A stretch of DNA of 64,000 nucleotides from Verrucomicrobiia bacterium. GTDB lineage: Bacteria > Verrucomicrobiota > Verrucomicrobiia > Limisphaerales > UBA11358. The stretch spans positions 2,111 to 66,110 of the forward strand of contig JASHPN010000162.1 in the NCBI GenBank assembly GCA_030038175.1. The letters run 5' to 3'. The position numbers and the translations under genes were made by a program. The notes below the pieces were generated by a model. That model was not told where the DNA came from and made no database searches. It saw nothing but the letters and a program-made list of their open reading frames with translations. This document shows, piece by piece, positions 7,380 through 63,531 of the stretch. The stretch's first letter is position 1, and each line of letters opens with the position of its first letter.

Positions 7380-8939
7380 ATGAAACCCCAGGTTGAAATA
7401 TACGATACAACCCTGCGCGACGGTTCGCAGGGCGAAGGCATCAACTTTTCGGTGGCCGACAAGCTTCGCATCGCCGAAAAACTCGACGCTTTTGGGGTCC
7501 ATTACATTGAAGGCGGCTGGCCCGGATCCAATCCCAGGGACATTGAATTTTTTACCCAGGCCAGGCGAAAGAAATTCAAAAACGCGCGCCTGGCCGCCTT
7601 TGGCTCGACCCGACGGAAAGGGATTCCCGTCGAACAGGACGACCAAGTGCGCCTGCTGATCGAGGCCGAAACGCCAGTGGTGACCATTTACGGCAAAACG
7701 TCCATGCTCCACGTCACGGAAGTGCTGCGCTGCACGCCTGATGAGAATTTGGGCATGATCGGCGACACTGTGCGCTACCTCAAAGACAATGGCAAATTTG
7801 TCGTCTATGACGCCGAGCATTGCTTTGACGGTTACAAGCTGAATCCCGAATACGCCATCGCGACCTGGCAGGCCGCCGAAAAGGCGGGCGCAGATTTTGT
7901 GGTGCTCTGCGATACCAACGGCGGTTGTTTGCCTGAGGATGTTGCCGCCATCACCCGTGTGGCGGCCGCGAAGCTGAATTGCCGGATCGGCATTCACACC
8001 CACGATGACATCGGCCTGGGCGTGGCCAATGCGCTCGCCGCCCTGGGCGCCGGAGCCGTCCATGTGCAAGGCACCGTCAACGGTTACGGCGAACGCACCG
8101 GCAATTGCAATTTGATCAGTGTCATTCCTTGCGTGGCCTTGAAATTGAAAAAGAGCGGCGTGCCGGAAAAATCATTGCGGAAATTGAAAGAACTTTCGCA
8201 GTTCGTGGATGAGATGGCCAACGTGCGCCATAATCCCCGCCTGCCCTGGGTTGGCTCGGCGGCCTTCTCGCACAAGGGCGGCACGCACGTAAACGCGGTC
8301 CAAAAATTGGCCTCAAGTTACGAGCACATTGACCCGGCGCTGGTGGGCAATTCGCGCACCGTCCTCATCAGCGATCTCGCAGGCCGCAGCAACATCGTGA
8401 TGAAAGCACAGGAAATGGGTTTCAAGCTTTCCAACGATACGCCGGAATTGAAGACGATTCTCAATCGCGTCAAAGAACTGGAGAATGCCGGCTACGAATA
8501 CGAAGCCGCCGAAGGTTCGTTTGCCTTGCTCATCGGCAAGACGTTGAAACACCGGGAACCGCCGTTCACGGTCGAAACCTATCACGTCTCCATGCGGCAC
8601 GACTCCAAAGAATCCATTTGCGAAGCCACCGTGCGCGTGCGCGTGGGAAAAAAGTTCCATCATGAAGTCGCCGAAGGCGATGGCCCGGTCAACGCCCTCG
8701 ACGGCGCGTTGCGCGCCGCGTTGACGAAATCGTTTCCGCGGCTGAAAAAGGTCACGCTCACGGATTATAAAGTCCGCATCCTGGATTCCGCCACCGGCAC
8801 GGCGGCCAAGACCCGCGTGCTGATCCAAACCTCCGACGGCAAACGCGAATGGGGCACCGTGGGCGTAAACGAAAACATCATAGACGCCAGCCTGCAGGCC
8901 CTGGCGGATTCGATGGAATATGCGCTCCTGCGGAAGTGA
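7380..8939 (+). CDS. cimA: Citramalate synthase (LeuA/CimA family, long form)
   Basis: MKPQVEIYDTTLRDGSQGEGINFSVADKLRIAEKLDAFGVHYIEGGWPGSNPRDIEFF, HTHDDIGLGVANALAAL, and a C-terminal LeuA-dimer-like region. I prefer the ATG at 7380 to the TTG at 7356. Confidence 0.8.
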   Translation: MKPQVEIYDTTLRDGSQGEGINFSVADKLRIAEKLDAFGVHYIEGGWPGSNPRDIEFFTQARRKKFKNARLAAFGSTRRKGIPVEQDDQVRLLIEAETPVVTIYGKTSMLHVTEVLRCTPDENLGMIGDTVRYLKDNGKFVVYDAEHCFDGYKLNPEYAIATWQAAEKAGADFVVLCDTNGGCLPEDVAAITRVAAAKLNCRIGIHTHDDIGLGVANALAALGAGAVHVQGTVNGYGERTGNCNLISVIPCVALKLKKSGVPEKSLRKLKELSQFVDEMANVRHNPRLPWVGSAAFSHKGGTHVNAVQKLASSYEHIDPALVGNSRTVLISDLAGRSNIVMKAQEMGFKLSNDTPELKTILNRVKELENAGYEYEAAEGSFALLIGKTLKHREPPFTVETYHVSMRHDSKESICEATVRVRVGKKFHHEVAEGDGPVNALDGALRAALTKSFPRLKKVTLTDYKVRILDSATGTAAKTRVLIQTSDGKREWGTVGVNENIIDASLQALADSMEYALLRK

Positions 8940-9285: not shown

Positions 9286-12219
9286 ATGTCTGAAATCCCC
9301 AAAGCCTACGAACCGCGGTCCGTTGAGGACAAATGGTATCAATTCTGGCTGGACGAAAAATTTTTCGTCGCCAATCCGAAATCGCCCAAGCCGGCATATT
9401 CCATCGTGATTCCGCCGCCCAACGTCACCGGCGTGTTGACAATGGGCCACGTGCTCAATAATACCATCCAGGACATCCTGAGTCGCAAAGCGCGCATGGA
9501 TGGAAAGGAGGTCCTTTGGCTGCCCGGCACCGACCACGCGGGGATTGCGACCCAGACGGTCGTGGAGCGGACGCTGAAAAAATCCGGCGAAATCAAGCAT
9601 CGCGACGATCTGGGCCGCGAGAAATTTCTCGAACGCGTCTGGCAATGGAAGGAAAAGCACGGCGGCATTATCATCCAGCAATTGAAAAAACTCGGCGCCT
9701 CGTGCGATTGGTCGCGGGAACGGTTCACGATGGACCCGGAGTACTCCAGGTGCGTCCAAAAAGTCTTCGTGGAGCTTTACGGGAAAGGGCTCATCTATCG
9801 CGACAAACGCATGGTGAACTGGTGCCCCGTCTCACTCACGGCGTTGTCCGATGAAGAAGTCATTATGAAAGAGCAGAAGGGAGCGCTCTATTACTTCAAG
9901 GTGGAAGTTGAAATGGGGAGCGCACCCGCCCCGGGTGCGGTCGAACGCGCCTTGCGTTCAATGTCCTCCGATGAAAAGGTTTTCCTCACCATCGCTACGA
10001 CCCGTCCTGAGACCATTCCGGGCGATACCGCCGTGGCCGTGAATCCCAAAGACCCGCGCTACGCGAAATACATTGGCAAACATGTCGTCCGGCCTTTGCC
10101 GGCGGAATTGCCGCGGGAACAAAAGCTCATTCCCATTATCGGTGACGAGCGCGTGGATTTTGAATTTGGCACCGGCGTTCTCAAAGTCACGCCCGCGCAT
10201 GACAAGGCCGACTTTGAAATTGGCTTGCGCCACAAACTGCCACAGATAGACATCATGCGTCCCAACGGCCACATGAACGAGTTGGCCGGAAAGGATTTGA
10301 ACGGCCTGGATCGGTTCAAGGCGCGCAAGGTCGCCGCCGAAAAACTGGCTGAACTGGGTTTGCTCGAAAAAGAAGAGTCTTATACGAACAACGTCGGTTT
10401 CAGCGAACGCGCGGACGTCCCCATCGAACCGCGATTGAGCGAGCAATGGTTCCTCAAATATCCGAGCGCGGAAAAAGCTCGCAACTGTGTCGAGCAGGGG
10501 AGCGCAGCCGCCTTAGCTGCGTCGGTCGGCGCCTCGCCGACCGAAAAAGTCGAAGCCGGGGCGGCTTCGACCGCACGCGAGACGCGTGCGCTCCCCAAAA
10601 TGAAATTCCATCCCGGTCGCTGGGCAAAAGTGTATGACCATTGGATGGGCGGTTTGCTGGATTGGTGCATCAGCCGCCAGCTTTGGTGGGGACATCGGAT
10701 TCCGGTGTGGTATCGGGCAAGTGAAGTCTATTGCGGTCTGGAAGCACCGGCTGGTCAAGGCTGGCAGCAGGACCCCGACGTTTTGGACACCTGGTTCAGT
10801 TCCTGGCTCTGGCCGTTTGCGACGATGGGGTGGCCGGAACAGACCGAGACATTGAAGAAATTTTATCCGACCACCGACCTCGTCACCGGGCCGGACATTA
10901 TCTTCTTCTGGGTCGCGCGCATGATCATGGCCGGTTACGAGTTCATGCACGAGATGCCGTTCAAGAACGTCTATTTCACCGGCATCATTCGGGACAAGCA
11001 AGGGCGCAAGATGTCCAAGAGCCTGGGCAATTCGCCCGATCCGCTTGAATTGATATCGAAGTACGGCGCGGATGCCTTGCGTTTCGGCGTGATGCGCGCC
11101 GCGCCGCTCGGGCAGGATATTTTGTTCGATGAACAATACGTCGAACTGGGCCGAAATTTCTGCAATAAGCTTTGGAACGCCTGCCGTTTCCGGCAGGTAG
11201 TGGGACAGGCTTCCAGCCTGTCCGGCCCTTCCGGCGCAGAGGCAGGCAGGATGCCTGCCCCACTATACGAGGTTCAGGGCGAAATAGATCCAAAACTGTT
11301 AACGGCGGATGACAAATGGATTTTGCTCAAGCTGGATGCCGCTCTGCGTGAAATCGCCGCGGCCTTCGCCGAATACAAATTCAGCGACGCCACAACCACG
11401 CTCTACCGCTTCTTCTGGAGCGAGTATTGCGATTGGTATGTCGAAGCCAGCAAAGCCGTGTTGCAGGGGAGCGCAGCCGCCCCGGCTGATCCGGTCGGCG
11501 CCTCGCCGACCGAGAAAATCGAAGTCAAGGCGGCTTCGACCGCACGCAAGGCTAATACGATTGCCGTCATTGATTTTGTCTTGTCCCACACGCTGCGCCT
11601 ATTCCATCCGTTCCTGCCATTTATCACTGAAGAACTTTGGCATGGCATGGGTTACAGCGAGGATATGCCGGAAAATCAGGGCGGCAAAACCATCATGTTC
11701 GCCCCCTGTCCCAAACCGTTGGATGATGATTTCAAGTCCTTCTACGGTCTCAGCGAACGGGACGAAAAACTCATCGAAGCGCGCAATGAATTGATTGTTC
11801 AGGGCCGCGACCTGCGCCGCCAGGCCAACCTTCCGGCCAATAAAAAGGTCAAATTCATTTTCAAACCCGCCGGACACGCCGGCGACGCGGAAGTTTTGAA
11901 ACTGCTGCTCAACGCGGAATCAGTTGAGATCAATCCGAATTATCAACCGGCCAAAAGTGTCCTGGCCGTGCACCATGAACTGGGTGATCTATTTTTGCCG
12001 CTGGAAGGCCTGGTGGACGTGGAGGCCGAAAAGAGCCGACTCAAAAAAGAATTGGAAAAGATCGAGAGCGAAATTGCCAAGGTCGAACAAAAGCTGGCGA
12101 ACCCCAATTTTACCCAAAAAGTCCCTCCGGCCGTACTGGACGAGCACAAAAAACGCCTTGCCGACTGGCAATCGAAACGCGAGCATGTCCTGGCCGCGCT
12201 CGCCGCGCTCGGCTTATAG
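9286..12219 (+). CDS. valS: Valine--tRNA ligase
   Basis: PPPNVTGVLTMGHVLNNTIQD (HIGH-type motif), TTRPETIPGDTAVAVNP, DWCISRQLWWGHRIP, KMSKSLGNSPDP, and a C-terminal coiled coil. It carries extra repeat-derived segments (see findings). Confidence 0.95.
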   Translation: MSEIPKAYEPRSVEDKWYQFWLDEKFFVANPKSPKPAYSIVIPPPNVTGVLTMGHVLNNTIQDILSRKARMDGKEVLWLPGTDHAGIATQTVVERTLKKSGEIKHRDDLGREKFLERVWQWKEKHGGIIIQQLKKLGASCDWSRERFTMDPEYSRCVQKVFVELYGKGLIYRDKRMVNWCPVSLTALSDEEVIMKEQKGALYYFKVEVEMGSAPAPGAVERALRSMSSDEKVFLTIATTRPETIPGDTAVAVNPKDPRYAKYIGKHVVRPLPAELPREQKLIPIIGDERVDFEFGTGVLKVTPAHDKADFEIGLRHKLPQIDIMRPNGHMNELAGKDLNGLDRFKARKVAAEKLAELGLLEKEESYTNNVGFSERADVPIEPRLSEQWFLKYPSAEKARNCVEQGSAAALAASVGASPTEKVEAGAASTARETRALPKMKFHPGRWAKVYDHWMGGLLDWCISRQLWWGHRIPVWYRASEVYCGLEAPAGQGWQQDPDVLDTWFSSWLWPFATMGWPEQTETLKKFYPTTDLVTGPDIIFFWVARMIMAGYEFMHEMPFKNVYFTGIIRDKQGRKMSKSLGNSPDPLELISKYGADALRFGVMRAAPLGQDILFDEQYVELGRNFCNKLWNACRFRQVVGQASSLSGPSGAEAGRMPAPLYEVQGEIDPKLLTADDKWILLKLDAALREIAAAFAEYKFSDATTTLYRFFWSEYCDWYVEASKAVLQGSAAAPADPVGASPTEKIEVKAASTARKANTIAVIDFVLSHTLRLFHPFLPFITEELWHGMGYSEDMPENQGGKTIMFAPCPKPLDDDFKSFYGLSERDEKLIEARNELIVQGRDLRRQANLPANKKVKFIFKPAGHAGDAEVLKLLLNAESVEINPNYQPAKSVLAVHHELGDLFLPLEGLVDVEAEKSRLKKELEKIESEIAKVEQKLANPNFTQKVPPAVLDEHKKRLADWQSKREHVLAALAALGL
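9915..9939. repeat. Short palindromic repeat inside valS (family B head)
   Basis: Begins with ggggagcgca, the same 10-mer that heads the elements at 10497 and 11466. It is followed by the hairpin cgcacccg-ccc-cgggtgcg. Confidence 0.5.
10497..10596. repeat. 100-bp palindromic MITE/REP-like element inside valS (family B)
   Basis: Perfect 10-bp terminal inverted repeats: ggggagcgca (10497-10506) and tgcgctcccc (10587-10596). Internal hairpins tcggtcggcg/cgccgaccga and gtcgaagcc/ggcttcgac. Translated in frame as GSAAALAASVGASPTEKVEAGAASTARETRALP. Confidence 0.75.
11197..11268. repeat. 72-bp palindromic element inside valS (related to the 130-bp family C)
   Basis: gtagtggg...cccactat termini. 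Hairpins ggacaggct-tcc-agcctgtcc and ggcagg-at-gcctgcc. Core ggcgcagag is shared with the elements at 12222 and 62462. The element is 24 codons long and in frame (VVGQASSLSGPSGAEAGRMPAPLY). Confidence 0.65.
11466..11547. repeat. Second family B element inside valS (right end degenerate)
   Basis: ggggagcgcagccgcc...ggtcggcgcctcgccgaccga.aaaatcgaag...ggcggcttcgaccgcacgc aligns by eye almost base for base with 10497-10580. Translated as GSAAAPADPVGASPTEKIEVKAASTARK. Confidence 0.7.
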
Positions 12220-12221
12220 AT

Positions 12222-12351
12222 GGCAGGGACATCGCGCTACGATGTCCCCGCCGGCGCAGAGCGGGCGGAACAAACCCGGCGCCGGCACACTGTTCGGGCG
12301 GACGTTGCGCCGCTGAACGCGGCGCGGACGGCGTAGCGCGCCGTCCCTACC
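12222..12351. repeat. 130-bp palindromic intergenic element (family C) just after the valS stop
   Basis: ggcagggacatcgcgctacgatgtcccc ... gccggcgcagagcgg ... ggacggcgtagcgcgccgtccctacc. It has two terminal hairpins and g[ct]agggac/gtccctac termini. A same-length paralogue lies at 62462-62591. Confidence 0.75.
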
Positions 12352-12362
12352 TGGAAAAATGC

Positions 12363-13880
12363 ATGGACGTTACTCATAACATGATACTTTCAATCAGAAA
12401 ACTATATCTGGCAGCACTGGCCCTCATCGCTATTTGTGCCCTGCCATCCGTTCTTTCCGCACAAACACCGGAAAGCTCCCTTAATCTGGCCGCCCACATG
12501 GAGCTTTCCGGAAAATTCGTCGAAGCGTCCAACGTTCTGAACGGCGCCCTGGCTGAAAACTCTTCCGCGGACCAGCGCAAGCAAATCGAATTTGAACTGG
12601 ATCGCCTGAACCGCATCCGGCTGGATTATACATTCACGCGGGAAAAGTTGTTTGACGCCCTCAAACAATCCGTCCGTGGACTGACGATGACTGAATTTGA
12701 GCAATGGGTCAACGAAGGGCGTTTCGATTCCCGAACCATAGACGGCCGGCAATACTTCATGAATTCCAGCGTGTCGAATCTCTACTTTCGCTATCCGGAA
12801 TTAAATCCTCGCCGGATCGGTGGTCCGGATTACACGACCTTGGACAACGCCATTTTGGCGTCCTGCCGCGCCATCCGGCAAGCCGCCCGGCAGCAAGGCA
12901 CGCCCTATGTTTTACCGAAACGATTTAATATGACCATGACGGTCACGGCCGATGCCGATGCGGCGCCGGCCGGCCAAACCATTCGGGCCTGGCTGCCGAT
13001 TCCCCGCGCGTACCCATATCAAAAAGATTTCGAATTGATCAAAAGCACGCCGCCGGTGAAGGAAATTGCCCCGGCCGACAGTTCAATCCGTTCCGCCTAC
13101 TTTGAGGCGGCGGCCCAGGCCGGCCGACCGACGGTGTTTACGTTGAACTATCTTTATACGCGCTACGGCGTGTCGTTCACGATTGATCCCAGGCGGGTCA
13201 CGCCGTTTGACGGCAAAGACCCGGCCATCGCCAGGTTTACCCGCGAAGAGCCGAACGTGGTTTTCACGCCGCAAATGCGGGCTTTATCGAAGGAAATCGG
13301 CGGGGGCGAACGCAACCCGGCGCTGCTGGCGAGAAAGTTTTACGACTGGATTGGCGCTCACGTCCATTACAGTTTCGCGATCGAATATTCCACCATCCGG
13401 AACGTCGGCGACTACTGCCGCTCGCACGGCTACGGCGATTGCGGCCAGGAAGCGATGTTTTTCATTACGCTCTGCCGGCTGAATGGCATTCCCGCCCGAT
13501 GGCAATCCGGCTGGCACACGTTCCCCGGCATCATGGATATTCACGATTGGTCCGAAATTTATTTGGCGCCCTATGGCTGGGTGCCCGTGGACCCCTATAT
13601 GTGCGTGATGGCCACGCAGTACGCCCCAGTCCTCTCGCCCCAGGAACGCGACGAAGTCCGTGATTTCTATTTTGGCGGATTGGACCAATACCGCATGGCG
13701 GCCAACGATGATCATTCTCAGCTATTATCCCCTCGGAAGAACAGCTTTCGTTCCGACAACGTGGATTTTCAGCGCGCCGAACTGGAATGGGACGATCACA
13801 ACATCTATTTCAACCACTTTAGTTATCACATGGACGTGAAAGCATTGCCCGCCCGCGTCCTCGCAGCCGGGCAGCCATAG
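12363..13880 (+). CDS. Secreted transglutaminase-like cysteine protease superfamily protein
   Basis: Signal peptide LAALALIAICALPSVLSAQ. Cys-His-Asp core YGDCGQEAMFFITLCRLNGIPAR, DIHDWSEIY and GWVPVDP. Confidence 0.75.
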   Translation: MDVTHNMILSIRKLYLAALALIAICALPSVLSAQTPESSLNLAAHMELSGKFVEASNVLNGALAENSSADQRKQIEFELDRLNRIRLDYTFTREKLFDALKQSVRGLTMTEFEQWVNEGRFDSRTIDGRQYFMNSSVSNLYFRYPELNPRRIGGPDYTTLDNAILASCRAIRQAARQQGTPYVLPKRFNMTMTVTADADAAPAGQTIRAWLPIPRAYPYQKDFELIKSTPPVKEIAPADSSIRSAYFEAAAQAGRPTVFTLNYLYTRYGVSFTIDPRRVTPFDGKDPAIARFTREEPNVVFTPQMRALSKEIGGGERNPALLARKFYDWIGAHVHYSFAIEYSTIRNVGDYCRSHGYGDCGQEAMFFITLCRLNGIPARWQSGWHTFPGIMDIHDWSEIYLAPYGWVPVDPYMCVMATQYAPVLSPQERDEVRDFYFGGLDQYRMAANDDHSQLLSPRKNSFRSDNVDFQRAELEWDDHNIYFNHFSYHMDVKALPARVLAAGQP

Positions 13881-18032: not shown

Positions 18033-18102
18033 GTGGCATTTATACGCAATTTAAATGCCAAGTTGCAAGGGGTTATCGAGGCGGCGAGAATGGAGAAGAG
18101 AC

Positions 18103-18230
18103 CTGCCTCCGCACGAGGCTACGGCAAGGCAGGCCTGCCTCCGCACGAGGCTACGGCAAGGCAAGCCTGCCTCCGCGCAAGGCTACGGCAAGGCACGCCT
18201 GCCTCCGCACAAGGCTACGGCAAGGCAGGG
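18103..18230. repeat. Tandem repeat of 4 x 32 bp; each unit can form a hairpin
   Basis: The unit ctgcctccgcacgaggctacggcaaggcaggc is repeated head to tail, with units starting at 18103, 18135, 18167 and 18199 and a few substitutions. cctgcct/aggcagg form a 7-bp stem in each unit. There are no spacers. Confidence 0.85.
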
Positions 18231-18444
18231 CCGCCTTCGTCTGACTTCAGCGCGGCAAGAGATGGAAGATGGCAAACGCGGAGTGTCGAAAGAACGGAAG
18301 GCGTGTTGCGTGGTGCGTGCTGCGTCAAGTAATGGGACGGAGAGGATAGGCGGAGGTTAGAATCCGCGAGTTTGTTAATTAACGCCAAGGCCCAAAGAAA
18401 CGGAAGGCGCGAAAACCCGGAATTTCTCCTTTTGCAGCTTTGTG

Positions 18445-48207: not shown

Positions 48208-50685
48208 TTATCTCGATGGTTGATCCGGTTCAAATTGGCGGCAGGCCTTGCCAGCGCTGTAAAGAGCTAACCGCTCTTGATTGCGTCTAATCAGCGTGAT
48301 ATCACCCAGCTTTTGTGCGAGCGCAATGGCCTCCTGTTCTGCGATGACGGCATCGCCAAATCGGCCCGTTTCCGCGTCCGCGGCTGCCAGGGCATTGAGG
48401 GCCGAGGGATCCACATGCCGTGTCAATTGGCTCGCCGTCTCAGCCAAAGCTACGGCGTTCGTTCCATTGCGAATGGCCGGCTGGGGCCAGGCTGCAAGGA
48501 TCCATGCCAGGTTGACGTAAGGCGGGACGAATCCGGGTTGAACATTAATGGCTTTCCGATACGAGGCAATGGCTTCAACCGGCATTCTTTTCTGACGAAA
48601 GGCATTGCCCAGGTTGTTATACGCCTGGCCAAATCCCGGCTGGCATTCAATGGCTTTTTGGAACTGGACGATGGCTTCATTGAACCGCGATTGTTTTAGA
48701 AAACAATAGCCAAGGTTATTGCAGGCGTAGGCAAAGTCCGGTTTGATTTCCAGGGCTTTTTGATACTGGGCAATGGCTTCATCCAACGACCCCATTCGGA
48801 AAAACGCGTCGCCCAGCCGCTCCCGGATGTCGGCGGATTCGGGTTGAAACTCCAGGGCCTGCTGATAATGGGCGATGGCCTGGTTCAATATCCCCTTTTG
48901 AAAGTAAGCGTCGCCCAGCCCGCTTTCACAATTCACGGAATCGAAATGAAATTCAATGGCCTTTTGATATTGGATAATCGCTTCGTCAGGTTTCCCTTGC
49001 TGGAGAAAACAATAGCCAAGGTTGTTGTAGGCGTCTGCGAAGTCTGGTTTTATTTCCAGGGCTTTTTGATATTGGGCAATGGCGTCGTCCAACCGCCCTT
49101 TTTGGGAAAAGACATTGCCGAGGCCGCCATGGGCTTCCGCGAACTTCGGTTCGAAGGCCAAAGCCCTTTTGAACCAGGCCGCCGCGTCATCGGGCCGGCC
49201 CTGGTTGAGCAAAGAGTTGCCCAGAAAATAGCTCGCTGTCCCGTATGCCTCAACGCCCGATAAGATGTTAAATGCAAGGGAATAGCACAGCAAAAGACAC
49301 CAGCCCGCGCGCGCAACACGCTTCCCGCTCGGATGGTCTTTCAATGTCTGTTCCAGGCTTAAGATGCCAATGGCGGCCAGGAGTATCAAAGGCGGAACAA
49401 AATCGAGTTCGTAACCGGCGCCGGCTGCGAAAAATAAACACAGGGTCGTCGCGCAGGCGGCAAAGAGCACAAATACCGCCGAGACAAACCATCGCAAATC
49501 GGAGTCTTGCGGGATTTGTTTCCATCCTGGCCATACCGCCAGCGCCAGCCAAACGAAGGGCGAATTCATCAGGATTCCAGGGCACCGTGAGAGGATACCG
49601 TGATACCCGGGCGGCACATGCCCGGGCGTCCCGGTTTGAGCTTGAATAAACGGAAAATGGCTGCCCCACCGGGTGGGTTCCAAAAAGTAATAACCAAAAT
49701 TTGTGAAAAAATAATCCAGACTGAATTGCCGGGCATGGTCGTTATTTTGATTTGTTAACTGGTAATGAAGTCCGAATTCGAAAGGATTGTCGAAACGCAG
49801 ATCATTATACACCATCAAACCTGCCCCTGCGAGTATGAGCGGGCCGGTTGCCGCTGCCAATGACAAGACCGGATGCCAGCGTGAAGTTTTCCGGCCTCTG
49901 ACTCGCCATTCCTGGAGGACTGGAACCAACAGAACGATCGCTCCAAATAACAATGATGGCCGCGATCCGATCGCCAACCCATACGCCACGCTCGCCAGCG
50001 TGAGCCATTGGAGCCGCCGTTCTGAATAGTGCATTGCGCGCCAGATGGCTGCCAGTGCCGCCATCACAAAAGCAAAGGCACAGCTCTTGGCCACTTCATA
50101 GACATCGCAGGATGCCAATATCTCAAAGGCGCCGCTGGCCAAACCTAATGCCAGGAGGCCGGCGGCGAGGGCCCAAATACTTGCATCCGGAAAATAACGC
50201 CTCCGGATCGCGCATAACAGAACCGTCCCTATCAAAAAACCAACGGTCAAAAAGGCGACCACACCGTCCCTGTGCGACAAATAGCTGCCCGTCAGAGCTT
50301 CACAGGGCCAAAAAAACACCAAAGCCGGAACCACGCCGAAATACAGGTACAATTTCCCTTTGTAATAACTCATCTCGTAGGCCAGATGGTGTTCGTCCCA
50401 CACGTATGGATGATTAAGCGACGGATTGTACGGGTCAGCAAGGCCGGCCAATTCCGGAGCCGGGTCCCGCATGACATAAAGGTGCCCGGAACGAAAACCT
50501 TGAACGAGCAGGTTGTAGTAGGAGTCGCTGACGCGCGAATCAGTCGCTTCGAGGGCGCCGGGTTCGGCGCCCCAGACAAATATCCCGATGATCAGGGCGC
50601 AAACAGCGGCAATGACAGCATGCTCCGTCCATTTACCGCCGGGTGTGCGCGTTGCCATTGCTTCGGGATTTGATATCTCGGCCAT
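48208..50685 (-). CDS. Polytopic membrane protein (GT-C-like N-terminal half) with C-terminal TPR repeats
   Basis: About 12 hydrophobic segments in the first ~480 aa, then at least 7 TPR units, e.g. AHGGLGNVFSQKGRLDDAIAQYQKALEIKPDFADAYNNLGYCFLQQGKPDEAI. Confidence 0.7.
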   Translation of the reverse strand: MAEISNPEAMATRTPGGKWTEHAVIAAVCALIIGIFVWGAEPGALEATDSRVSDSYYNLLVQGFRSGHLYVMRDPAPELAGLADPYNPSLNHPYVWDEHHLAYEMSYYKGKLYLYFGVVPALVFFWPCEALTGSYLSHRDGVVAFLTVGFLIGTVLLCAIRRRYFPDASIWALAAGLLALGLASGAFEILASCDVYEVAKSCAFAFVMAALAAIWRAMHYSERRLQWLTLASVAYGLAIGSRPSLLFGAIVLLVPVLQEWRVRGRKTSRWHPVLSLAAATGPLILAGAGLMVYNDLRFDNPFEFGLHYQLTNQNNDHARQFSLDYFFTNFGYYFLEPTRWGSHFPFIQAQTGTPGHVPPGYHGILSRCPGILMNSPFVWLALAVWPGWKQIPQDSDLRWFVSAVFVLFAACATTLCLFFAAGAGYELDFVPPLILLAAIGILSLEQTLKDHPSGKRVARAGWCLLLCYSLAFNILSGVEAYGTASYFLGNSLLNQGRPDDAAAWFKRALAFEPKFAEAHGGLGNVFSQKGRLDDAIAQYQKALEIKPDFADAYNNLGYCFLQQGKPDEAIIQYQKAIEFHFDSVNCESGLGDAYFQKGILNQAIAHYQQALEFQPESADIRERLGDAFFRMGSLDEAIAQYQKALEIKPDFAYACNNLGYCFLKQSRFNEAIVQFQKAIECQPGFGQAYNNLGNAFRQKRMPVEAIASYRKAINVQPGFVPPYVNLAWILAAWPQPAIRNGTNAVALAETASQLTRHVDPSALNALAAADAETGRFGDAVIAEQEAIALAQKLGDITLIRRNQERLALYSAGKACRQFEPDQPSR

Positions 50686-56181: not shown

Positions 56182-57696
56182 ATGCCTCAGCAACTCATCT
56201 ATACCAGCGCGCCGCGCGGCATTGTCGCCGGGCGGTCGGGCTATTGCACCGTGGCCCGCAGCGCGGCGATGCGGGAGGCGCTCATGATGCAATTGGAAAG
56301 ATTTTCCTATTACCAGCACCTTTCGCTGAGCGGCGGACAGGAACGGCCCATTTTTGCCTGCCGCGTCGTGGACCTTCGCGGCGTCCGTTATCACGTATTG
56401 AGCCGGATTGCGGATGCGGGATTGGACTTTACCGGCCGCACCAACTTCATTGCGCATCACCTCGTATTCGCGCCGGAGGAAATCGCAAAGAATGCGTCGC
56501 CGCCGGCCATTCTGAGCGGCTGGCCGGGCTGGGTCAAATCCTGGACGCGTGAACCGGGTTTGCTCGAAAGTGAGGACTGGGCCGGACTGGCCGCGCTGGC
56601 AGGCAGGCCCAATACAGCGGCGCAAACCTGGCAACGCGTGACCGGTGACGCTCAAAACGGCTACGGTCTGGTGGAAGCGCGGCCCGGGGTAGTGATTAGC
56701 GTTGATCATTTAGCCGATGAAGACGTGCTGAGACTTTTTGCGGAAAGCCTCGAACTTTTGGAAGTTCGCGGACCGCACCGGGACCTGCACGCCGCCCGGT
56801 GGAATTACACTTTCACCACTTCTATGCAGGAACAGGATAATCCGGCGGACTTTCGCTGGCGGTGCATTCATTCGGACAATCCCGCGGCGGCCCGTTTTGC
56901 AACGCCTGATTGCCCCGAACTTTCGTCCATCCGCGCCGGTTATTGCACGAACGAGGAAAGCGCGTTTGCCCGGACGGGACGGCAACCACCTTATTTTGTT
57001 CTCGAACCAAATGACTTGCGCATCGGCGAAGGTGAAAATGCCCGGTTCGTCGCCCGCGCTGAAGGTATTCCCAATCCCGCCTATCAATGGTTTTCCGTGG
57101 ACCGCAATCAGAACGCAAAAATGTTGCCCGGTGAAACGAACCCGGAGTTGGTGGTTTCACGTCCAGTCCTGGGCATATCACGTTACCAGGTCAGCGCTGT
57201 CAACGGTTCCGGCACGGCGCAAAGCAAGGTGGCCGTGTTATCCGTTGAAGCTGCCAAGGGATCTTCCGGGACCAAGGCGACTGGGACTTCTCCGGTTCCG
57301 GCCAAACCGGGCGTCTATAGTGTTCGGCGCGATGAAAGTGGTGAAAGCGGGCGGCAGCGGGAAAGCAAAGCGTCAATGGTGACGGGGACCGGTGTTGGCC
57401 GCTTGCTCACGCGCGCGGCTCTGATTACAGCCGTGCTACTCATAATCGCGGCGCTTGTCGTGCGGCACCATTTGTTGTCATCCCGAATGTCCGCACCGGC
57501 AACATCAAAAAGCACGGCGGCGAACAATGCCAAAACAAATGCCGCCGCACTCCCAGGCGCCATGCCGCAGAAAACCGCAAATCTGAAACCGCCTCCGCCC
57601 ACTCTTTTCAATACGGCTAATATCGCATCCACCAACAATATCCGCACCAAAATCTATGCCGGCGGGCCAATGACGAATCCGGAGTCGCAAAAATGA
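56182..57696 (+). CDS. GAP1-N2-like N-terminal domain protein with Ig-like domain and a single C-terminal TM
   Basis: The N-terminus MPQQLIYTSAPRGIVAGRSGYCTVARS resembles the QL.YTS....G..G.SG[FY] start I associate with GTPase-associated protein 1 N-terminal domain type 2. PPYFVLEPNDLRIGEGENARFVARAEGIPNPAYQWF...YQVSAVNGSGTAQSKVAVLSV looks I-set Ig-like. The TM segment is LLTRAALITAVLLIIAALVV. ATGA overlap with the next gene. Confidence 0.6.
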   Translation: MPQQLIYTSAPRGIVAGRSGYCTVARSAAMREALMMQLERFSYYQHLSLSGGQERPIFACRVVDLRGVRYHVLSRIADAGLDFTGRTNFIAHHLVFAPEEIAKNASPPAILSGWPGWVKSWTREPGLLESEDWAGLAALAGRPNTAAQTWQRVTGDAQNGYGLVEARPGVVISVDHLADEDVLRLFAESLELLEVRGPHRDLHAARWNYTFTTSMQEQDNPADFRWRCIHSDNPAAARFATPDCPELSSIRAGYCTNEESAFARTGRQPPYFVLEPNDLRIGEGENARFVARAEGIPNPAYQWFSVDRNQNAKMLPGETNPELVVSRPVLGISRYQVSAVNGSGTAQSKVAVLSVEAAKGSSGTKATGTSPVPAKPGVYSVRRDESGESGRQRESKASMVTGTGVGRLLTRAALITAVLLIIAALVVRHHLLSSRMSAPATSKSTAANNAKTNAAALPGAMPQKTANLKPPPPTLFNTANIASTNNIRTKIYAGGPMTNPESQK

Positions 57697-60356
57697 GCGA
57701 GCCAGCCGAATCCCTTTACGCCACGTATCGCCGAGCCGTATTGAACCGCAACGACGAGGAGGCGCTCGGGATATTGCGCTCGATCGTTCGCGCAAATCCA
57801 TCGGACGCCAATGCGGCGGCCGAATTGGAGCGGCTCGACGCAAAAGTTTTGGCCGCGCGCCTGCGACATTTGGACGGTTCGGTGGAGGGAGGCGATGCGC
57901 GGCTCGTGGTGGCGGAAGTGGAGGCCATAGAAACTTTCGGGTTCAAAGCCCGGCCTGAAGGCGACGGCTGGCGCAAAGCCCAAACGATCCGCTGCGAGGT
58001 CCTGGTTGCGGATATCGCCGGACTGAAAACACAATCCCGCTGGTCGGACGCGCTGGTAAAAATAGATTTAATCCATCGGCTGCAAAAGAAATTTAAGCTC
58101 GAATTACCGGCCGGCAAGCAATTGGAAGGGCTTGAGGCCTGGGCGCGGGGTGAAAAAGAAAAGGACGCGCAGGAACGCGCGTTCCAGGCCCTCCTTTCGG
58201 AATTGCAGGTCCGCATCCAAAAGAGCGAAGAGAAGGACACGTCGGCGCGTTACGTGGAACTGCCGGAATTGCGGGATGATTACGAAGGGTTGCACAAGGT
58301 TTGGCGTTCGCTGACGGATTTTTCCCGTCCGATCCCGCCCGAGGCCATGGCCGCCTTTAAAAAGCGGTCGGCGCTGCTGGAAGCGGAAATCTACCGGCGC
58401 AATGCCATCCAAAGGCGGATCATCGTTGCGGCCGGGGTGACCGTCCTGATTGTGGTAGCGGCCATTGCCTGGGCGGGAGCCAGGGCAATGAGGGCGCATA
58501 ATTTTGCCCGTGAACTCCGAGCGGCGATCGCACAAAGGCAGGTTCACACAGCGGAAAATCTAATCGCCGACGGGCACAATAAGAATATCGGCAGCGCAGA
58601 TCTGCTCGCCGACGCCGGGACTTTTGTCGAAAGAGAAAATCTTCTGCTCACAAATTTTGAGTCGGCGCTTGCGGAATTGCCGCGGGAATTTCCCGACCAT
58701 CCGAACGCAGCCGGTTTGGATGCCGTCGCCGACGAATTCTCTTTGGCGCGCAATGCTTTGAACGCGCTTGCGCCGGACCTGAAAATAGAAAATGAACCGC
58801 GTGTTGCGGCATTTGAGCAGAATTGGCAAAACTACCTGGCCCAAAGCAGCGGAGCGGTGAACGACCTGTTGGCACAATGGATAGCCTCCGCCGAAAAGGA
58901 ATGCGATGCCCTCGATTACAATGCCCCGCTGGCCAAAACGCGAAACCAACTCGCCGCCCTTTCCGATTTGGTCCAAAAAATCAGCGATAACGCGGCGGGA
59001 TTCGGAAAAAACCTCCAGTTAAGGAGCGATTTGCTGGCTCGCCTGGCAACCGTGCGTGATAAGGCCGCCGGCTATCAGGCCGAACTGGACAAAGTGGATG
59101 GCGGACTGGCGGCAATCCAGCGAGCCAGGACCATCGGCGAATTTTCCCAGGGGATTAACCTGATCGCTTCCTCGGAGTTTTTGTCAGCGTCCGCGGTCGC
59201 CGGCGCAGCGGCTATTCAATCCCTGGACGTTAACGAAGAAACCACCCTGCGGTATCTGCTCAACGCCACCAATGCGAGCACCTGGGCCTATATCCAAAAA
59301 CAGCAGGCGGCGGATTTTATTCCGGAGGCGGTCATGCCTGCCGAACGGCAAATCCTGCGGAACCTGGCCAAAGATCCCACGGTGAGCGCAAACCATCTGC
59401 ATTACCACTTTTGGCTGGACAGCCAGGGTGAGAATTTTATCGAGTGGATCACCGCCGGGCCATTGGATACGAGCACCGGGTGGAAGACCATTTCCGCCTG
59501 GACGGTCTCGCCGGCCGCCGGCAGCGCGGTTTTCTCGGACCACGAGTACGGCTATTTCGACGGCCAATATAAACTCACCCCAACGGAACCAATCCTCCAC
59601 GTGAACCAATCCGGTTCATCAGACGAAACTGCGGCGTTTCATTCCATCGGCCTGGAAAAGGTTTTAGCGGGCGACAATGCGTATTCGAAACCCCTGCTGG
59701 AAGTCCTCGATTCGCTGAAAAACTCAGAGGATGGCTCGCCGCTTTTTCGAGCCTATCTTTTTTGGCACCTAACGGATCTAATGAACCTCCAACCGGACGC
59801 CTGGGGCGTCAGTTTCTGTCCGGCGCTCGTGGCCGATGAGGGCCGGCTTGGGACAATTGTGAACGGGGATTTGAACGACGGCGATTGGTTTGTGCCATCA
59901 AAAGTCTCTGCTTATGGCAAGCCGTTGGAACAATTTTTTGCCGGGGCCAGGGCGGTCATATATCAAAAACAGGCGAATGGGCTGTTGGCATTGGCGCAGG
60001 CGGTCTCAAAGAATGGGCTCCGCTATGCGGGTTATTGGGGGATGGACGGCCAGCCTCATTTGATTGGGGCAACCGTTCCGCAGGAGTTTTGGGCTTATAG
60101 CGTTGCCTTAAAAGAGCCGATATTGTTAACAACCTTGGAACTGGAACACGGCGTTTATGCGGATTCCGCGTCAACTTTGCAAGCGACGGTGAAGCGGTCC
60201 CGCCCCCTGCGGGACCGCGCTCCCGTGATGCCGCTCTCCCCGCTTTTCACCACGGCGCTATCACGCAAAGAATATATGGCAAACGCGGGAGTCAATCCGG
60301 ACGATCCTTCTTTCAAAAATGCTTTGCCGCCGTTCTTTCAAAATCCAACCCGCTAA
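57693..60356 (+). CDS. 887-aa single-pass membrane protein (helical N-terminal ~235 aa, TM, ~620-aa C-terminal region)
   Basis: Translationally coupled to both neighbours. TM segment RRIIVAAGVTVLIVVAAIAWAGA. I recognise no family motif. Confidence 0.6.
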   Translation: MSEPAESLYATYRRAVLNRNDEEALGILRSIVRANPSDANAAAELERLDAKVLAARLRHLDGSVEGGDARLVVAEVEAIETFGFKARPEGDGWRKAQTIRCEVLVADIAGLKTQSRWSDALVKIDLIHRLQKKFKLELPAGKQLEGLEAWARGEKEKDAQERAFQALLSELQVRIQKSEEKDTSARYVELPELRDDYEGLHKVWRSLTDFSRPIPPEAMAAFKKRSALLEAEIYRRNAIQRRIIVAAGVTVLIVVAAIAWAGARAMRAHNFARELRAAIAQRQVHTAENLIADGHNKNIGSADLLADAGTFVERENLLLTNFESALAELPREFPDHPNAAGLDAVADEFSLARNALNALAPDLKIENEPRVAAFEQNWQNYLAQSSGAVNDLLAQWIASAEKECDALDYNAPLAKTRNQLAALSDLVQKISDNAAGFGKNLQLRSDLLARLATVRDKAAGYQAELDKVDGGLAAIQRARTIGEFSQGINLIASSEFLSASAVAGAAAIQSLDVNEETTLRYLLNATNASTWAYIQKQQAADFIPEAVMPAERQILRNLAKDPTVSANHLHYHFWLDSQGENFIEWITAGPLDTSTGWKTISAWTVSPAAGSAVFSDHEYGYFDGQYKLTPTEPILHVNQSGSSDETAAFHSIGLEKVLAGDNAYSKPLLEVLDSLKNSEDGSPLFRAYLFWHLTDLMNLQPDAWGVSFCPALVADEGRLGTIVNGDLNDGDWFVPSKVSAYGKPLEQFFAGARAVIYQKQANGLLALAQAVSKNGLRYAGYWGMDGQPHLIGATVPQEFWAYSVALKEPILLTTLELEHGVYADSASTLQATVKRSRPLRDRAPVMPLSPLFTTALSRKEYMANAGVNPDDPSFKNALPPFFQNPTR

Positions 60357-60368
60357 GTTTTTAACGAT

Positions 60369-61334
60369 ATGGCACAATTCCCAGTCAAACCCAAATCCAA
60401 CAGCGCCGATGACAACCCGGAATTCCTCGCGTGGTCGAAGGACGACGTCGAGAACCGGTTCGGTTTCAAAGGCGGCCGTTACACCAACGTAAATCATGCT
60501 TTTGCGTTTCTCATCGGCGCGCTGCTGACGGCGATTCTTTACTGTCTGATGTTGTTTGTTTTCCGGCATATACCCGGCATCTCCAGAATTGCCGTCATTT
60601 ACATGCGGCCCACGAACCAATTCGCGGTTATCCCGGCCACGTTCTTCTTTTTTGGCGGGCTGACCGTTATTTTTTTAAAAGGGAAAAAAATTCAATTGCA
60701 GCAACGCGCGCTGAAATTGTCCGCGGTGCCTGCCGAACCGGAATTTGTGCTGACTGAAATGAACGCGGCCACCGTTTTGTCCCGAATTCACGCGCTGGTG
60801 GACCATCCCCGGCATTTCGTTTTGCTCAATCGCATTGACCGCGCTTTGTCCAATTTCAGGAACATCGGCCAGGTCAACGACGTCTCGGCGATTCTTCGAA
60901 CCCAGGCCGAGAATGACGAAGACCAGGTGGCATCAAGTTACACGGTGGTGAACGGCCTGGTTTGGGCCATTCCGGTGCTGGGCTTTATCGGAACGGTTTT
61001 GGGATTGAGCCTGGGCATCGGCAGGTTCACCGGAACGCTGCAATCAGCGGGTGACCTGGAGCAAATCCGCACTTCGCTTCAGGGAGTGACCAGCGGATTG
61101 GCCACCGCGTTCGAATCCACGCTCGTGGCCTTGACCTTCACGCTTATCCTCCAATTGGCCATTACCTTTCGGCAGAAGCAGGAAATGGCGTTCCTGGACG
61201 AATGCAACGACTATTGCCATTTGCACATCGTTTCTAAATTACGCCTGGACAGAGCCGTCCCGCAAAACGGGATGAGGGAGCGGCCCTTGACCACGCCACC
61301 GCCGACCCCAGCCGTCTCCGAAACCAAACCATGA
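60369..61334 (+). CDS. MotA/TolQ/ExbB-family ion-channel subunit
   Basis: Three TMs: FLIGALLTAILYCLMLFVF; then WAIPVLGFIGTVLGLSLGI and GLATAFESTLVALTFTLILQLAI. These reproduce the G.[LI]GT..G ... A[LF].[TS]T..G... signature of the last two helices of MotA_ExbB proteins. Confidence 0.75.
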   Translation: MAQFPVKPKSNSADDNPEFLAWSKDDVENRFGFKGGRYTNVNHAFAFLIGALLTAILYCLMLFVFRHIPGISRIAVIYMRPTNQFAVIPATFFFFGGLTVIFLKGKKIQLQQRALKLSAVPAEPEFVLTEMNAATVLSRIHALVDHPRHFVLLNRIDRALSNFRNIGQVNDVSAILRTQAENDEDQVASSYTVVNGLVWAIPVLGFIGTVLGLSLGIGRFTGTLQSAGDLEQIRTSLQGVTSGLATAFESTLVALTFTLILQLAITFRQKQEMAFLDECNDYCHLHIVSKLRLDRAVPQNGMRERPLTTPPPTPAVSETKP

Positions 61335-62425
61335 GAGAACGGTTCCGGACATTTGACTCGAAGATCAGTTTTTTTGCTTTCGCGGACATCATCACCGCTG
61401 TGAGCGGGATGTTAGTTTTTATCACATTGCTGCTCGCCACGGATCTTGGCCGCCCGGTCATTGGCGCCGCCCGACGCGCCACTTCCGAAATTCAACAGCA
61501 GCTTCAACAGTCCTTCGAGCAACAGGCGGACGCAGACGCTCAAATCGCCCGCTTGCAGGCACTGCTCGCGTCCGCGGAACGCGCGCCGGATTCGGCGACG
61601 CTGCAATCCGAGATTGCCAATTTGCGCGCACAACTTGCGGTTGAAGAAAATAAAGAGGCCGCCCTTGGAGTGCAAATCTCCGCCAACCAGGCTAACGTCG
61701 CGGCCCGGGATCAGGCGCTGGGCCTGACCGATTTGAAGGAAACGATCGCCCGCACATTTCAGGATGTGGAATCCCTCGCTGACGCGGAAAAGCAGGCCCG
61801 GGACAAGGCCCATGACCTGGACCAACAGGCCGCGCGCGTCGAGTCGCAACTCGTCAAGCTTCGCCAGCGTGAGGGGCAGATTTGGCTTATTCCAGACCGA
61901 ACCCTCACAACCAAAGAACCCATTCTTGTGACCGTAACCGGCGCCGGGATCAGCATCGAACGATTTAACCGTCCGAACCTCCGCGAGGATGCCAATGCCA
62001 GCGGAGCCAGCGACGCCTTTGCCACGTATCTGAGCAAGGCCCACAGCACCAACCAATACGTAGTATTTCTCATCAAACCCTCGGGCATCGCAACCTTTCG
62101 CAGCCTCGTCCTTTCGGCCCGCGATATGGGATTTGACGTCGGCTACGACGCGTTGGCGGAAAATCAACAGGTCCATTTTTCGACGCCGCCGCCCATTGAC
62201 GAAGCCATGCCGACCGAACACGAGACGGTTACGACTGCTCCAGGCTTTCCAAATCATGCGTCAGGCGCCGCGGCGGCGGGCGGGCCAGGGCATTCACCAG
62301 GCGCTGGGGCAGCATCACCGAAGCCAGGGGGGGCGCAATCGGCATCGCCCGCCCAAGCGCCTCCACCCCAGCCCAAACCCAAGAGCTGGTGGGAACGATT
62401 ATTGGAATGGCTCGGCCTGGAGTAA
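61331..62425 (+). CDS. ExbD/TolR-like subunit with TM aspartate, ~150-aa coiled coil, alpha/beta domain and Pro/Ala-rich tail
   Basis: The N-terminus ...ISFFAFADIITAVSGMLVFITLLL has Asp19 in the TM, as in ExbD/TolR/MotB. A Q/A/E/L-rich heptad region follows. PILVTVTGAGISIE...YVVFLIKPSGIATFRSLVLSARDMGFDVGYDAL resembles the ExbD periplasmic fold pattern. ATGA overlap with the upstream gene. Confidence 0.6.
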   Translation: MRERFRTFDSKISFFAFADIITAVSGMLVFITLLLATDLGRPVIGAARRATSEIQQQLQQSFEQQADADAQIARLQALLASAERAPDSATLQSEIANLRAQLAVEENKEAALGVQISANQANVAARDQALGLTDLKETIARTFQDVESLADAEKQARDKAHDLDQQAARVESQLVKLRQREGQIWLIPDRTLTTKEPILVTVTGAGISIERFNRPNLREDANASGASDAFATYLSKAHSTNQYVVFLIKPSGIATFRSLVLSARDMGFDVGYDALAENQQVHFSTPPPIDEAMPTEHETVTTAPGFPNHASGAAAAGGPGHSPGAGAASPKPGGAQSASPAQAPPPQPKPKSWWERLLEWLGLE

Positions 62426-62461
62426 TTTGAAATGAACCTGCCACAACCATATGTCGATTTT

Positions 62462-62591
62462 GGTAGGAACGACGCGCTGCGTCGTCCGCGCCGCGCAGAG
62501 CGGCGCAACCGATTACCAAACATTCTTCCGATCAATGACAATCTTTCCACCCGCTTTACGGGCGGGGACATCGCAGCGCGATGTCCCTACC
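62462..62591. repeat. 130-bp palindromic element (family C) inserted between two operon genes
   Basis: ggtaggaacgacgcgctgcgtcgtcc ... gcgcagagcgg ... ggggacatcgcagcgcgatgtccctacc. Same length, termini and core as 12222-12351. The wider insert 62442-62610 is flanked by a 10-bp direct repeat atgaacctgc. Confidence 0.8.
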
Positions 62592-62610
62592 AAATTGACT
62601 ACGATATCCG

Positions 62611-63531
62611 ATGAACCTGCGCCGTAAAAAACCCGCCGACAGCCTCTACATGCTGCTGGACACCATGTGCAACGCATTTGGCGGCATCATCCTGCTGGCG
62701 GTCCTGGTGGTATTGCTGACCAATAAAGAAAAGAGCCAGGCTGCGACGACAACGGGTTCGCAGGCGCTTTTAAATCGGCAGCTGGCGCTGGCGCAAACAA
62801 ACCTCGCAGAGTCGCTGCGCCTGGAATCGTCGTTGCAGGCCCGAGCCGCCGACCCGCGTTGGAAGGAACAAATGGCACTTTTGACCAGCCGCCAGGACTT
62901 GCAGGACCAGATCCGGCAAATGCGCGAGGCGGTCGCCGAAAACATGAAAGACGTCGAAACGGCCGCTGCCGCCGACCCGGCGGCGCGCCTGAAATTTCTG
63001 AACACAGAACTTGCGGACGCGCAGGCCAAAAAGCTTGCGGCGCAAAACAGTTTGGCGGCACAAGAGGAGGACATTAGCCGCCGGAAGGAACACCTGGCGG
63101 GTCTGCAACAGGAAGTGATTGCCAAATTGCGGGACATGCAACGTCCGTTGCGTTTGCCTCTGGAACACACGTCGGACAAACCGGTGATCTATGTGATCGT
63201 CGAACATGGGCGCCTTTATCCGTGCGAAAATCCCGACCTAAGCCAGGATACAACCGACATTCATTGGAAACCGCTCGGCTTTATGGCGCAGGAAGCGGAT
63301 CCGATCCCCGGCAGAGGGCTGGCGCCGAACGCGAGCGGCGAGTATTTCCGCCGGCTGTCCGGCAATTCCGTTTATGTGGCCTTTGTAGTTTATGAAGACT
63401 CGTTCGAGGCATTTATCATTGCCAAACAAATCGCCGTGGCCAGCGGCCTGTCCTACGGATGGGAACCGCGCACCGAAGCGGACGGGCCCGCGGCCTTTGG
63501 GCCGGGCGGGCATACGCCGGGGGCACAATGA
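62611..63531 (+). CDS. Second ExbD/TolR-like subunit with TM aspartate and coiled coil (paralogue of 61331-62425)
   Basis: ...SLYMLLDTMCNAFGGIILLAVLVVLL has Asp17 in the TM. A ~140-aa coiled coil follows. PVIYVIVEHGRLY...VYVAFVVYEDSFEAFIIAKQIAVASGLSYGWEP parallels the C-terminal domain of the preceding protein. Confidence 0.6.
   Translation: MNLRRKKPADSLYMLLDTMCNAFGGIILLAVLVVLLTNKEKSQAATTTGSQALLNRQLALAQTNLAESLRLESSLQARAADPRWKEQMALLTSRQDLQDQIRQMREAVAENMKDVETAAAADPAARLKFLNTELADAQAKKLAAQNSLAAQEEDISRRKEHLAGLQQEVIAKLRDMQRPLRLPLEHTSDKPVIYVIVEHGRLYPCENPDLSQDTTDIHWKPLGFMAQEADPIPGRGLAPNASGEYFRRLSGNSVYVAFVVYEDSFEAFIIAKQIAVASGLSYGWEPRTEADGPAAFGPGGHTPGAQ

Follow-up and report, generated by a model that had tools for sequence, protein, structure and literature searches.

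Insertion sequences of the IS200/IS605 group, such as IS608, are moved by a Y1 transposase of the HUH class that recognises subterminal hairpins; the ends of these elements lie outside the hairpins and have no terminal inverted repeats, and the elements encode their own transposase and insert, with no target duplication, on the 3' side of a specific tetranucleotide. The tyrosine transposases associated with repetitive extragenic palindromic (REP) sequences, termed RAYTs, belong to the IS200/IS605 Y1 transposases, which make no target duplications (PMC2817692). Head-to-head dimers of REPs tagged with GTAG were defined by Di Nocera et al. (2013), including those of the verrucomicrobium Opitutus terrae (PMC3733652), and the REP doublets forming hairpins (REPINs) were defined by Bertels and Rainey (2011) (PMC3116915). 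Bacterial MITEs (miniature inverted-repeat transposable elements; PMC3184786), for example MITEAba12 (PMC6382973), are non-coding, shorter than 200 bp and able to form a long stem-loop, and they are flanked by a direct target duplication and placed next to or within transcription units. Here, we describe a 169-bp insert between the last two genes of an operon in a 64,000-nt stretch of DNA from a Verrucomicrobiia bacterium (contig JASHPN010000162.1; the whole stretch is referred to as the window, and positions are counted from its first letter). This insert, the 62-kb element, shares all of the above properties of the MITEs, and combines a transposon-like duplication, without the terminal inverted repeats of a MITE, with Y1-like subterminal hairpins.

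The 10-mer ATGAACCTGC occurs at 62432–62441 and again at 62611–62620, with no third occurrence in the window on either strand. The bases bordering the two copies differ on either side, and therefore the repeat is exactly 10 bp long. The chance expectation for this 10-mer in the window is 0.14; of 100 shuffled versions of the window, 2 contained two copies. Between the copies lie 169 bp (62442–62610), which contain a palindrome of 130 bp (62462–62591). A preliminary description of this DNA had reported the pair, its 169-bp separation, the palindrome and an open reading frame (ORF) at 62432–62614, and every one of these coordinates was exact on recomputation.

The filled site was compared with ten orthologous loci from seven lineages, with protein identities of 55–76%. 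In all ten, the spacer is missing and the two genes abut, with arrangements ranging from a 4-nt overlap (ATGA) to a 7-nt gap; each locus has a single ATGAAYCTB start for the downstream gene, followed by CGCCG/GGCGC-AAAAA. When 179 bp are removed, the window reads GAGTAAtttgaaATGAACCTGCgccgtaaaaaaccc and is colinear, base for base, with the orthologues, for example with loci L001 (TGAggatgaaATGAATCTGCgccgcaaaaagccc) and L005 (TAAATGAACCTGAggcgcaaaaaaccc); the reconstructed empty junction is TTTGAAATGAACCTGCGCCGT. Since the orthologous genes abut and the window without the 179 bp is colinear with them, the spacer is a derived insertion.

The downstream protein has 398 homologues, and among the best 120 of these, most are approximately 305–309 aa long and cover 100% of the query, indicating a conserved start at 62611. 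The cluster of this protein in the protein collection has one member, no conspecific sequence is present there, and the nearest relative is 76% identical. The upstream 10-mer fits the position of the ancestral start relative to the upstream stop, and the downstream 10-mer fits the coding sequence; therefore, the pair is a true target duplication. The flanks of the repeat family to which the core of the insert belongs provided a null: when the 45-nt flanks of 45 doublets were taken and those of unrelated copies were paired, direct repeats of 10 nt or longer occurred in 0 of 1756 cross-pairings, which places the duplication beyond chance. These results indicate that the insertion and its 10-bp target duplication are real and lineage-specific. 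The preliminary description had taken the spacer for an insertion and the 10-mer for a duplication of the native gene start, and had proposed a comparison with orthologous loci; the ten spacer-free loci, their single-copy empty sites and the colinearity bear out both views. A gap between the called genes in two further loci, L131 and L132, was considered as another insertion and was ruled out as a gene-call artefact.

The features of the filled site, and the second copy of the repeat family in the window, are as follows.

61331–62425, plus strand: upstream operon gene, 364 aa, with a membrane anchor and a coiled coil; syntenic in the orthologous loci
62419–62422, plus strand: GGAG resembling a Shine-Dalgarno (SD) sequence, 9 nt ahead of the first ATG copy
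62423–62425, plus strand: TAA stop of the upstream gene, 6 nt ahead of the first ATGAACCTGC copy
62432–62441, plus strand: ATGAACCTGC, upstream copy of the target duplication (10 bp), standing where, by comparison with the empty orthologous sites, the ancestral start codon lay relative to the upstream stop
62432–62614, plus strand: 60-codon ORF created by the insertion, with its TGA stop at 62612–62614
62442–62461, plus strand: left 20 nt of the insert, outside the repeat-family consensus
62453–62461, plus strand: GTCGATTTT, the inner 9 nt of the left 20-nt tail, pairing with 62592–62599
62462–62487, plus strand: left REP arm GGTAGGAACGACGCGCTGCGTCGTCC, with an unpaired GTAG tag, a 9-bp stem and a 3-nt loop
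62488–62506, plus strand: inner hairpin H2, GCGCCGC-GCAGA-GCGGCGC, found too in the 12-kb copy and in the copies of other genomes
62507–62546, plus strand: variable spacer, AT-richer
62547–62565, plus strand: inner hairpin H3, CCACCCGC-TTTA-CGGGCGG; other copies have CCGCCCGC...GCGGGCGG
62566–62591, minus strand: right REP arm, reading GGTAGGGACATCGCGCTGCGATGTCC on the minus strand, an exact match to the search pattern
62592–62610, plus strand: right 19 nt of the insert, outside the repeat-family consensus, with no SD-like sequence before the restored ATG
62611–62620, plus strand: downstream copy of the 10-bp duplication, the functional start of the 306-aa gene according to homologue coverage and the empty sites
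62611–63531, plus strand: last operon gene, 306 aa, conserved in Verrucomicrobiota
12222–12351, minus strand: second family copy in the window (the 12-kb copy), without a flanking duplication, between the valS stop at 12219 and the next gene start at 12363
Ends of the insert: CACAACCATATG... on the left and ...CGATATCCG on the right
Tip sequences of the cassette: CACAACCATATGTCGATTTT and AAATTGACTACGATATCCG

The core of the insert resembles the GTAG-tagged REP dimers in several respects. The 62-kb and 12-kb copies have four hairpins in common and differ in the central spacer; the shared hairpins are an outer arm, GGTAGGGAC-NN-CGCGCTGCG-NN-GTCC, two inner hairpins, GCGCCGCG...GCGGCGC and CCGCCCGC...GCGGGCGG, and the inverted outer arm. 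Both arms of the 62-kb element read G-GTAG-G(G/A)AC NN CGCGCTGCG NN GTCC, and each folds by itself into a short, GC-rich stem-loop, one end of which bears the unpaired GTAG tag. Together, they form a head-to-head doublet with the GTAG tags outward. An inverted repeat with 34-nt arms (62459–62492 and 62561–62594, complementarity 82%) spans this doublet, and the predicted fold of the region is a single long hairpin with a minimum free energy of -74.3 kcal/mol (z = -5.0 against dinucleotide shuffles).

A scan with the arm pattern GGYAGGRACNNCGCGCTRCGNNGTCC, using one genome per species, yielded at least 119 loci. Among the matches listed, nearly all were from Verrucomicrobiota (Verrucomicrobiae, Chthoniobacterales, Udaeobacter and 'Spartobacteria'), and single metagenome-assembled genomes (MAGs) carried family copies on several contigs. 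In the loci from the scan, the arms are mostly arranged as inverted pairs with the GGTAGG ends outward and spacers of 0–91 nt; 47 doublets with GTAG outside were counted in the fetched loci and the window, the 64-kb window of the source genome contributing two. The variable NN positions of the stem are complementary in 194 of the 207 arms, with six pair types, 164 of the 207 begin with GGTAGGG, and the information content of the family falls to zero right outside the first G of GGTAGG.

Because the doublet layout, the stem complementarity and the sharp ends match the published definitions (PMC3733652, PMC3116915), the 130-bp core is a REPIN-type doublet of GTAG-tagged REPs. As in those systems, the stem variants keep their complementarity, the inverted pair has its GTAG tags outward with a spacer of 0–100 nt and may form one long hairpin, and the element is extragenic, between co-directional genes. 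The listed REP families of Opitutus terrae encode other peptides than the present family, and, judged by these REP-encoded peptides, the present repeats therefore appear to be a further GTAG-REP family. An Rfam search of the region gave no match, and clustering of 305 ORFs neighbouring the repeats gave no recurring protein family.

In three loci from other Verrucomicrobia, family doublets lie within clusters of a second short repeat (L030 1–420, L107 5470–6050 and L110 4650–5100), which is built on CCATGAACC/GGTTCATGG(G/A)AAGC and sometimes forms an outer inverted repeat around the doublet. Beside the doublets of these loci, ATGAACCTG or a near variant is found, and we considered whether the 10-mer is a component of some composite repeat, or else a favoured target. 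This was rejected; in L030 and L107, ATGAACCTG belongs to the different local repeat (CCATGAACC/GGTTCATGG), it is rare in the window, and the orthologues show that it is the native gene start.

As described for REPINs mobilised by RAYTs, the present family also flanks RAYT genes, here in related genomes. In locus L059, from a Verrucomicrobia MAG, a 151-aa ORF (5515–5970) was detected solely by searching all fetched loci for a motif. It matches the NCBIfam model NF047646 for REP-associated tyrosine transposases (E = 4e-30; score 104.6 bits, cut-off 80) and PDB entry 4ER8, the E. coli TnpA_REP (E = 2.7e-11); its match to Pfam Y1_Tnp is weak and under the threshold. This gene lies between two zero-spacer family doublets (5443–5495 and 5966–6017). 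In addition, in locus L020, from a Chthoniobacterales MAG, the right flank of a family doublet (7711–7799) aligns with the L059 RAYT gene at its start. The doublets in L059 and the alignment in L020 indicate, at the sequence level, that a RAYT is flanked by the present REP family in at least two genomes. The same motif search found no RAYT gene within the 64-kb window. The preliminary term 'MITE-like' is thus only partly apt: the target duplication fits it, whereas the core is a REPIN-type doublet and the RAYT of the relatives is flanked by the same repeats, so that the element is not a typical MITE.

The regions L059 5443–6017 and L020 7711–8000 look like 'REPtrons' of the present family. In another locus, L082 (5900–6010), a REP singlet directly follows a stop codon, with TAG adjoining GTAG (TAG/GTAGGG; TTAGGTAGGGAC), and the related sites L020 1150–1200 and L059 2590–2660 have a short unrelated spacer in place of the REP. 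For copies other than the 62-kb element, this was the only pair of filled and empty sites; no clear duplication was seen, in flanks that have diverged too far for a firm judgement.

The insertion also altered the reading frames at the junction. As the preliminary description had stated, the upstream copy of the 10-mer heads a 60-codon ORF, which starts at the ancestral ATG (62432), is stop-free across the whole palindrome, and ends in a TGA that overlaps the restored ATG as ATGA. The ancestral ATG retains the SD-like GGAG, and no SD-like sequence is present in the 19 nt before the restored ATG. The gene pair of the relatives is positioned for translational coupling. Termination on the next start codon is the classical geometry of termination-reinitiation. 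Because the leader ORF is read through the hairpin to the ATGA overlap, ribosomes translating it could melt the structure (-74 kcal/mol), terminate at the start of the last gene and re-initiate there; we infer that the leader ORF could be translated and could preserve translational coupling in this way, with a possible regulatory effect. When the 60-aa leader peptide was used as a protein query, a single marginal match was obtained, over 20% of its length.

On untranslated mRNA, the hairpin may serve as a stability or processing element. Intercistronic REP and bacterial interspersed mosaic element (BIME) hairpins in E. coli operons, of the malE-malF type, are mRNA stabilisers and translation modulators. 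Like these, the 62-kb element is a stable REP hairpin between two cistrons, placed to affect their relative expression; unlike these, its hairpin lies inside a new ORF ending on the next start codon. Such E. coli hairpins are also cited in 10.1101/2024.07.17.603846. No promoter-like or terminator-like sites were found in 62200–62800. By analogy with the intercistronic REPs of enterobacteria, a role of the hairpin in mRNA stability, or in attenuation or RNA processing as the preliminary description had suggested, is plausible.

Taken together, the explanation that we consider probable is that a REP-cored palindromic cassette of 169 bp integrated at the junction of two coupled operon genes in this lineage only. 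The cassette would have integrated at a 10-bp staggered break across ATGAACCTGC, which comprises the native start codon plus the seven bases after it, and fill-in repair would have duplicated the 10 bp, leaving one copy beside the upstream stop and the other keeping the downstream gene intact. To our knowledge, a staggered 10-bp cut with fill-in is the sole well-established source of a perfect 10-bp flanking duplication. For this reason, we tentatively favour mobilisation of the whole 169-bp unit in trans by a transposase that cuts with a 10-bp stagger, although we hold this particular step to be somewhat less than an even prospect. Such an enzyme, which we infer from the duplication, would have caused a MITE-like event on a REP-cored cassette, rather than the single-strand pathway canonical for RAYTs, from which no duplication results. 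Duplications of approximately 10 bp are made by insertion sequences of the IS4-like, ISAs1-like and IS481-like families.

Several observations weigh against this explanation. The longest direct repeats shared by the flanks of the doublets follow the null distribution, and the sole value of 10 is that of the 62-kb copy; none of the 44 other doublets, including 12222–12351, has a target duplication above background, in line with the Y1 transposases making none (PMC2817692). The 10-mers lie 20 nt (left) and 19 nt (right) outside the GGTAGG and CCTACC ends of the family. Short-word BLAST searches with the 20- and 19-nt tails against the window and 870 kb of related loci gave only chance-level hits, and JGI metagenomes contained no match to the left junction CCATATGTCGATTTTGGTAGG. 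The outer 11 nt of the insert tips show no significant complementarity (p = 0.15). In all, one such event is visible, and no family of 169-bp units is demonstrated. In addition, 46–59% of the frames across family doublets are stop-free and one insertion length of three gives the ATGA overlap, so that the leader-ORF geometry, expected by chance in roughly 15–20% of insertions, is not statistically special.

On two further points, the MITE-like reading of the preliminary description is not supported as it stood. By its own account, it would be refuted by other copies of the element without flanking duplications, and neither 12222–12351 nor the remaining doublets carry one above background; in addition, the 10-mers lie beyond the family ends, and the tips are not inverted repeats. 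The latter fact argues against a standard DDE-mobilised MITE. The complementarity of the whole 20- and 19-nt flanks (p = 0.06) comes solely from GTCGATTT/AAATTGAC beside the REP arms, where the inner 8–9 nt of the tails lengthen the hairpin (GTCGATTTT/AAATTGAC). Since the orthologous empty sites lack the 39 extra nt, these arrived with the insert. The 12-kb copy leaves just 2 and 11 nt to its adjacent genes and is therefore unable to carry such tails. Like the tails, the spacer 62507–62546 gave only chance-level matches in the window and the fetched loci (short-word BLAST).

The insert thus departs from each of the described systems in some respect. Unlike the MITEs, it has no inverted repeats at its extreme ends, its core is from a REP/RAYT family, and the window, the 870 kb of related loci and, for the left junction, the JGI metagenomes yielded no second copy sharing its ends. 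Like the IS608-type elements, it has subterminal hairpins, ends some distance outside them and no terminal inverted repeats; unlike them, it has a duplication and no transposase gene of its own. Unlike the RAYT/IS200 systems, it is bounded by a perfect 10-bp target duplication, and unlike the GTAG-REP dimers, it has 20 and 19 nt of non-family sequence inside this duplication. For other GTAG and CGTC families, REP dimers have been described inside outer palindromic arms that never occur empty (PMC3733652), and composite mobile units around REP dimers are therefore not unprecedented.

The geometry of the insert bears directly on a different explanation, in which a cognate RAYT excised a single-stranded segment whose ends lay approximately 20 nt outside the REP hairpins, and the duplication arose secondarily from replication or repair. 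TnpA of IS608 cuts in a comparable manner, at 19 nt and 10 nt from its subterminal hairpins. The subterminal hairpins, the non-palindromic tips and the lack of terminal inverted repeats correspond to a Y1/HUH geometry and not to that of a DDE element, and the core genuinely belongs to the REP family whose copies flank the RAYT genes of related genomes; moreover, the excision footprints of REPINs are reportedly asymmetric and do not coincide with the conserved element (PMC3116915). Nevertheless, no known Y1/HUH transposition yields a target duplication (PMC2817692), the other family copies are without one, and the 64-kb window is without a RAYT gene. We therefore regard this course of events as unlikely.

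Capture of a REP doublet, together with native flanks of approximately 20 nt, at a staggered double-strand break would require no element-specific enzyme. The 20 and 19 extra nt, which are non-family and resemble the flanks of a donor site, the insert tips without inverted repeats and the single event seen would all be accounted for by such a one-off capture. However, the perfect 10-bp duplication requires a break with a 10-nt stagger, which is typical of transposases and not of spontaneous breaks, and no donor locus was found in the window or the fetched loci, so that we consider this capture very unlikely. Finally, that the 10-mer recurs by coincidence, as 10-mers can (the 2 of 100 window shuffles above), or that the spacer is ancestral and was lost in the relatives, is scarcely credible and is effectively refuted by the empty-site comparison, given that each copy stands exactly at its expected ancestral position (the upstream stop for one, the downstream coding sequence for the other), that none of the 1756 null flank pairs reaches 10 nt, and that absence of the spacer from all seven orthologue lineages would need seven independent precise losses.

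A wider conjecture, which we regard as quite unlikely, is the following: GTAG-REP doublets of Verrucomicrobiota may move as longer cassettes by a route that duplicates 10 bp, either through a DDE transposase that hijacks REP-cored palindromes or by an undescribed RAYT-linked mode, with landings on start codons surviving through the duplication and an open, ATGA-ended leader ORF. If this were true, copies on start codons would survive, with the duplication and the leader ORF preserving coupling.

The operon that received the insert consists of four genes (57693–63531), and its arrangement is conserved in the Verrucomicrobiota relatives. One member is a protein of 887 aa, and another is a MotA/ExbB-family protein (Pfam PF01618, E = 1.8e-7) with weak ZorA-like PADLOC matches. 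The last two proteins each have an N-terminal membrane anchor and a coiled coil; they are not detectably similar to each other, neither matches a Pfam, NCBIfam or PADLOC family above threshold, and the PDB sequence search covered the 306-aa protein. The label 'ExbD-like', given to the last gene in the preliminary description, thus found no support in the Pfam, NCBIfam, PADLOC or PDB sequence searches.

Other repeats were observed elsewhere in the window. Within valS (9286–12219), a different palindromic repeat family, GGGGAGCGCAGCCGCC...GGTCGGCGCCTCGCCGACC...GTCGAAGCCGGGGCGGCTTCGAC...TGCGCTCCCC, is represented by in-frame copies at 9914–9951, 10475–10597 and 11444–11550; two 107-nt copies are 80% identical and encode GSAAA..VGASPTEK..AASTAR. 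These look like intragenic REP-type insertions, which have been reported in tRNA synthetase genes (PMC3733652). A tandem array at 18070–18261 contains approximately five 32-nt units (CCTGCCTCCGCACGAGGCTACGGCAAGGCAGG), each a small hairpin with CTAC, the reverse complement of GTAG, and possibly represents a cluster of another GTAG-type REP family. At 48550–49165, repeats of 60–84% identity recur with a period of 102 nt; they are probably motifs within a coding region.

Overall, the 62-kb element is a REPIN-type element of an already known kind. Its insertion cleanly exemplifies a known process, with a single atypical feature, the duplication, which rests on one event. The analysis documents a REP family across Verrucomicrobiota, together with the RAYT genes that it flanks. 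The insertion of REPs and REPINs is still poorly documented, and there are very few cases with both a filled and an empty site; the 62-kb case provides a base-precise comparison of the two, with a duplication not expected under the accepted RAYT mechanism, and is thus a data point on how REP/REPIN elements, or cassettes around them, integrate. For the host, insertion into a coupled gene junction appears tolerable, in that the duplicated start and the read-through leader ORF may keep the downstream gene expressed.

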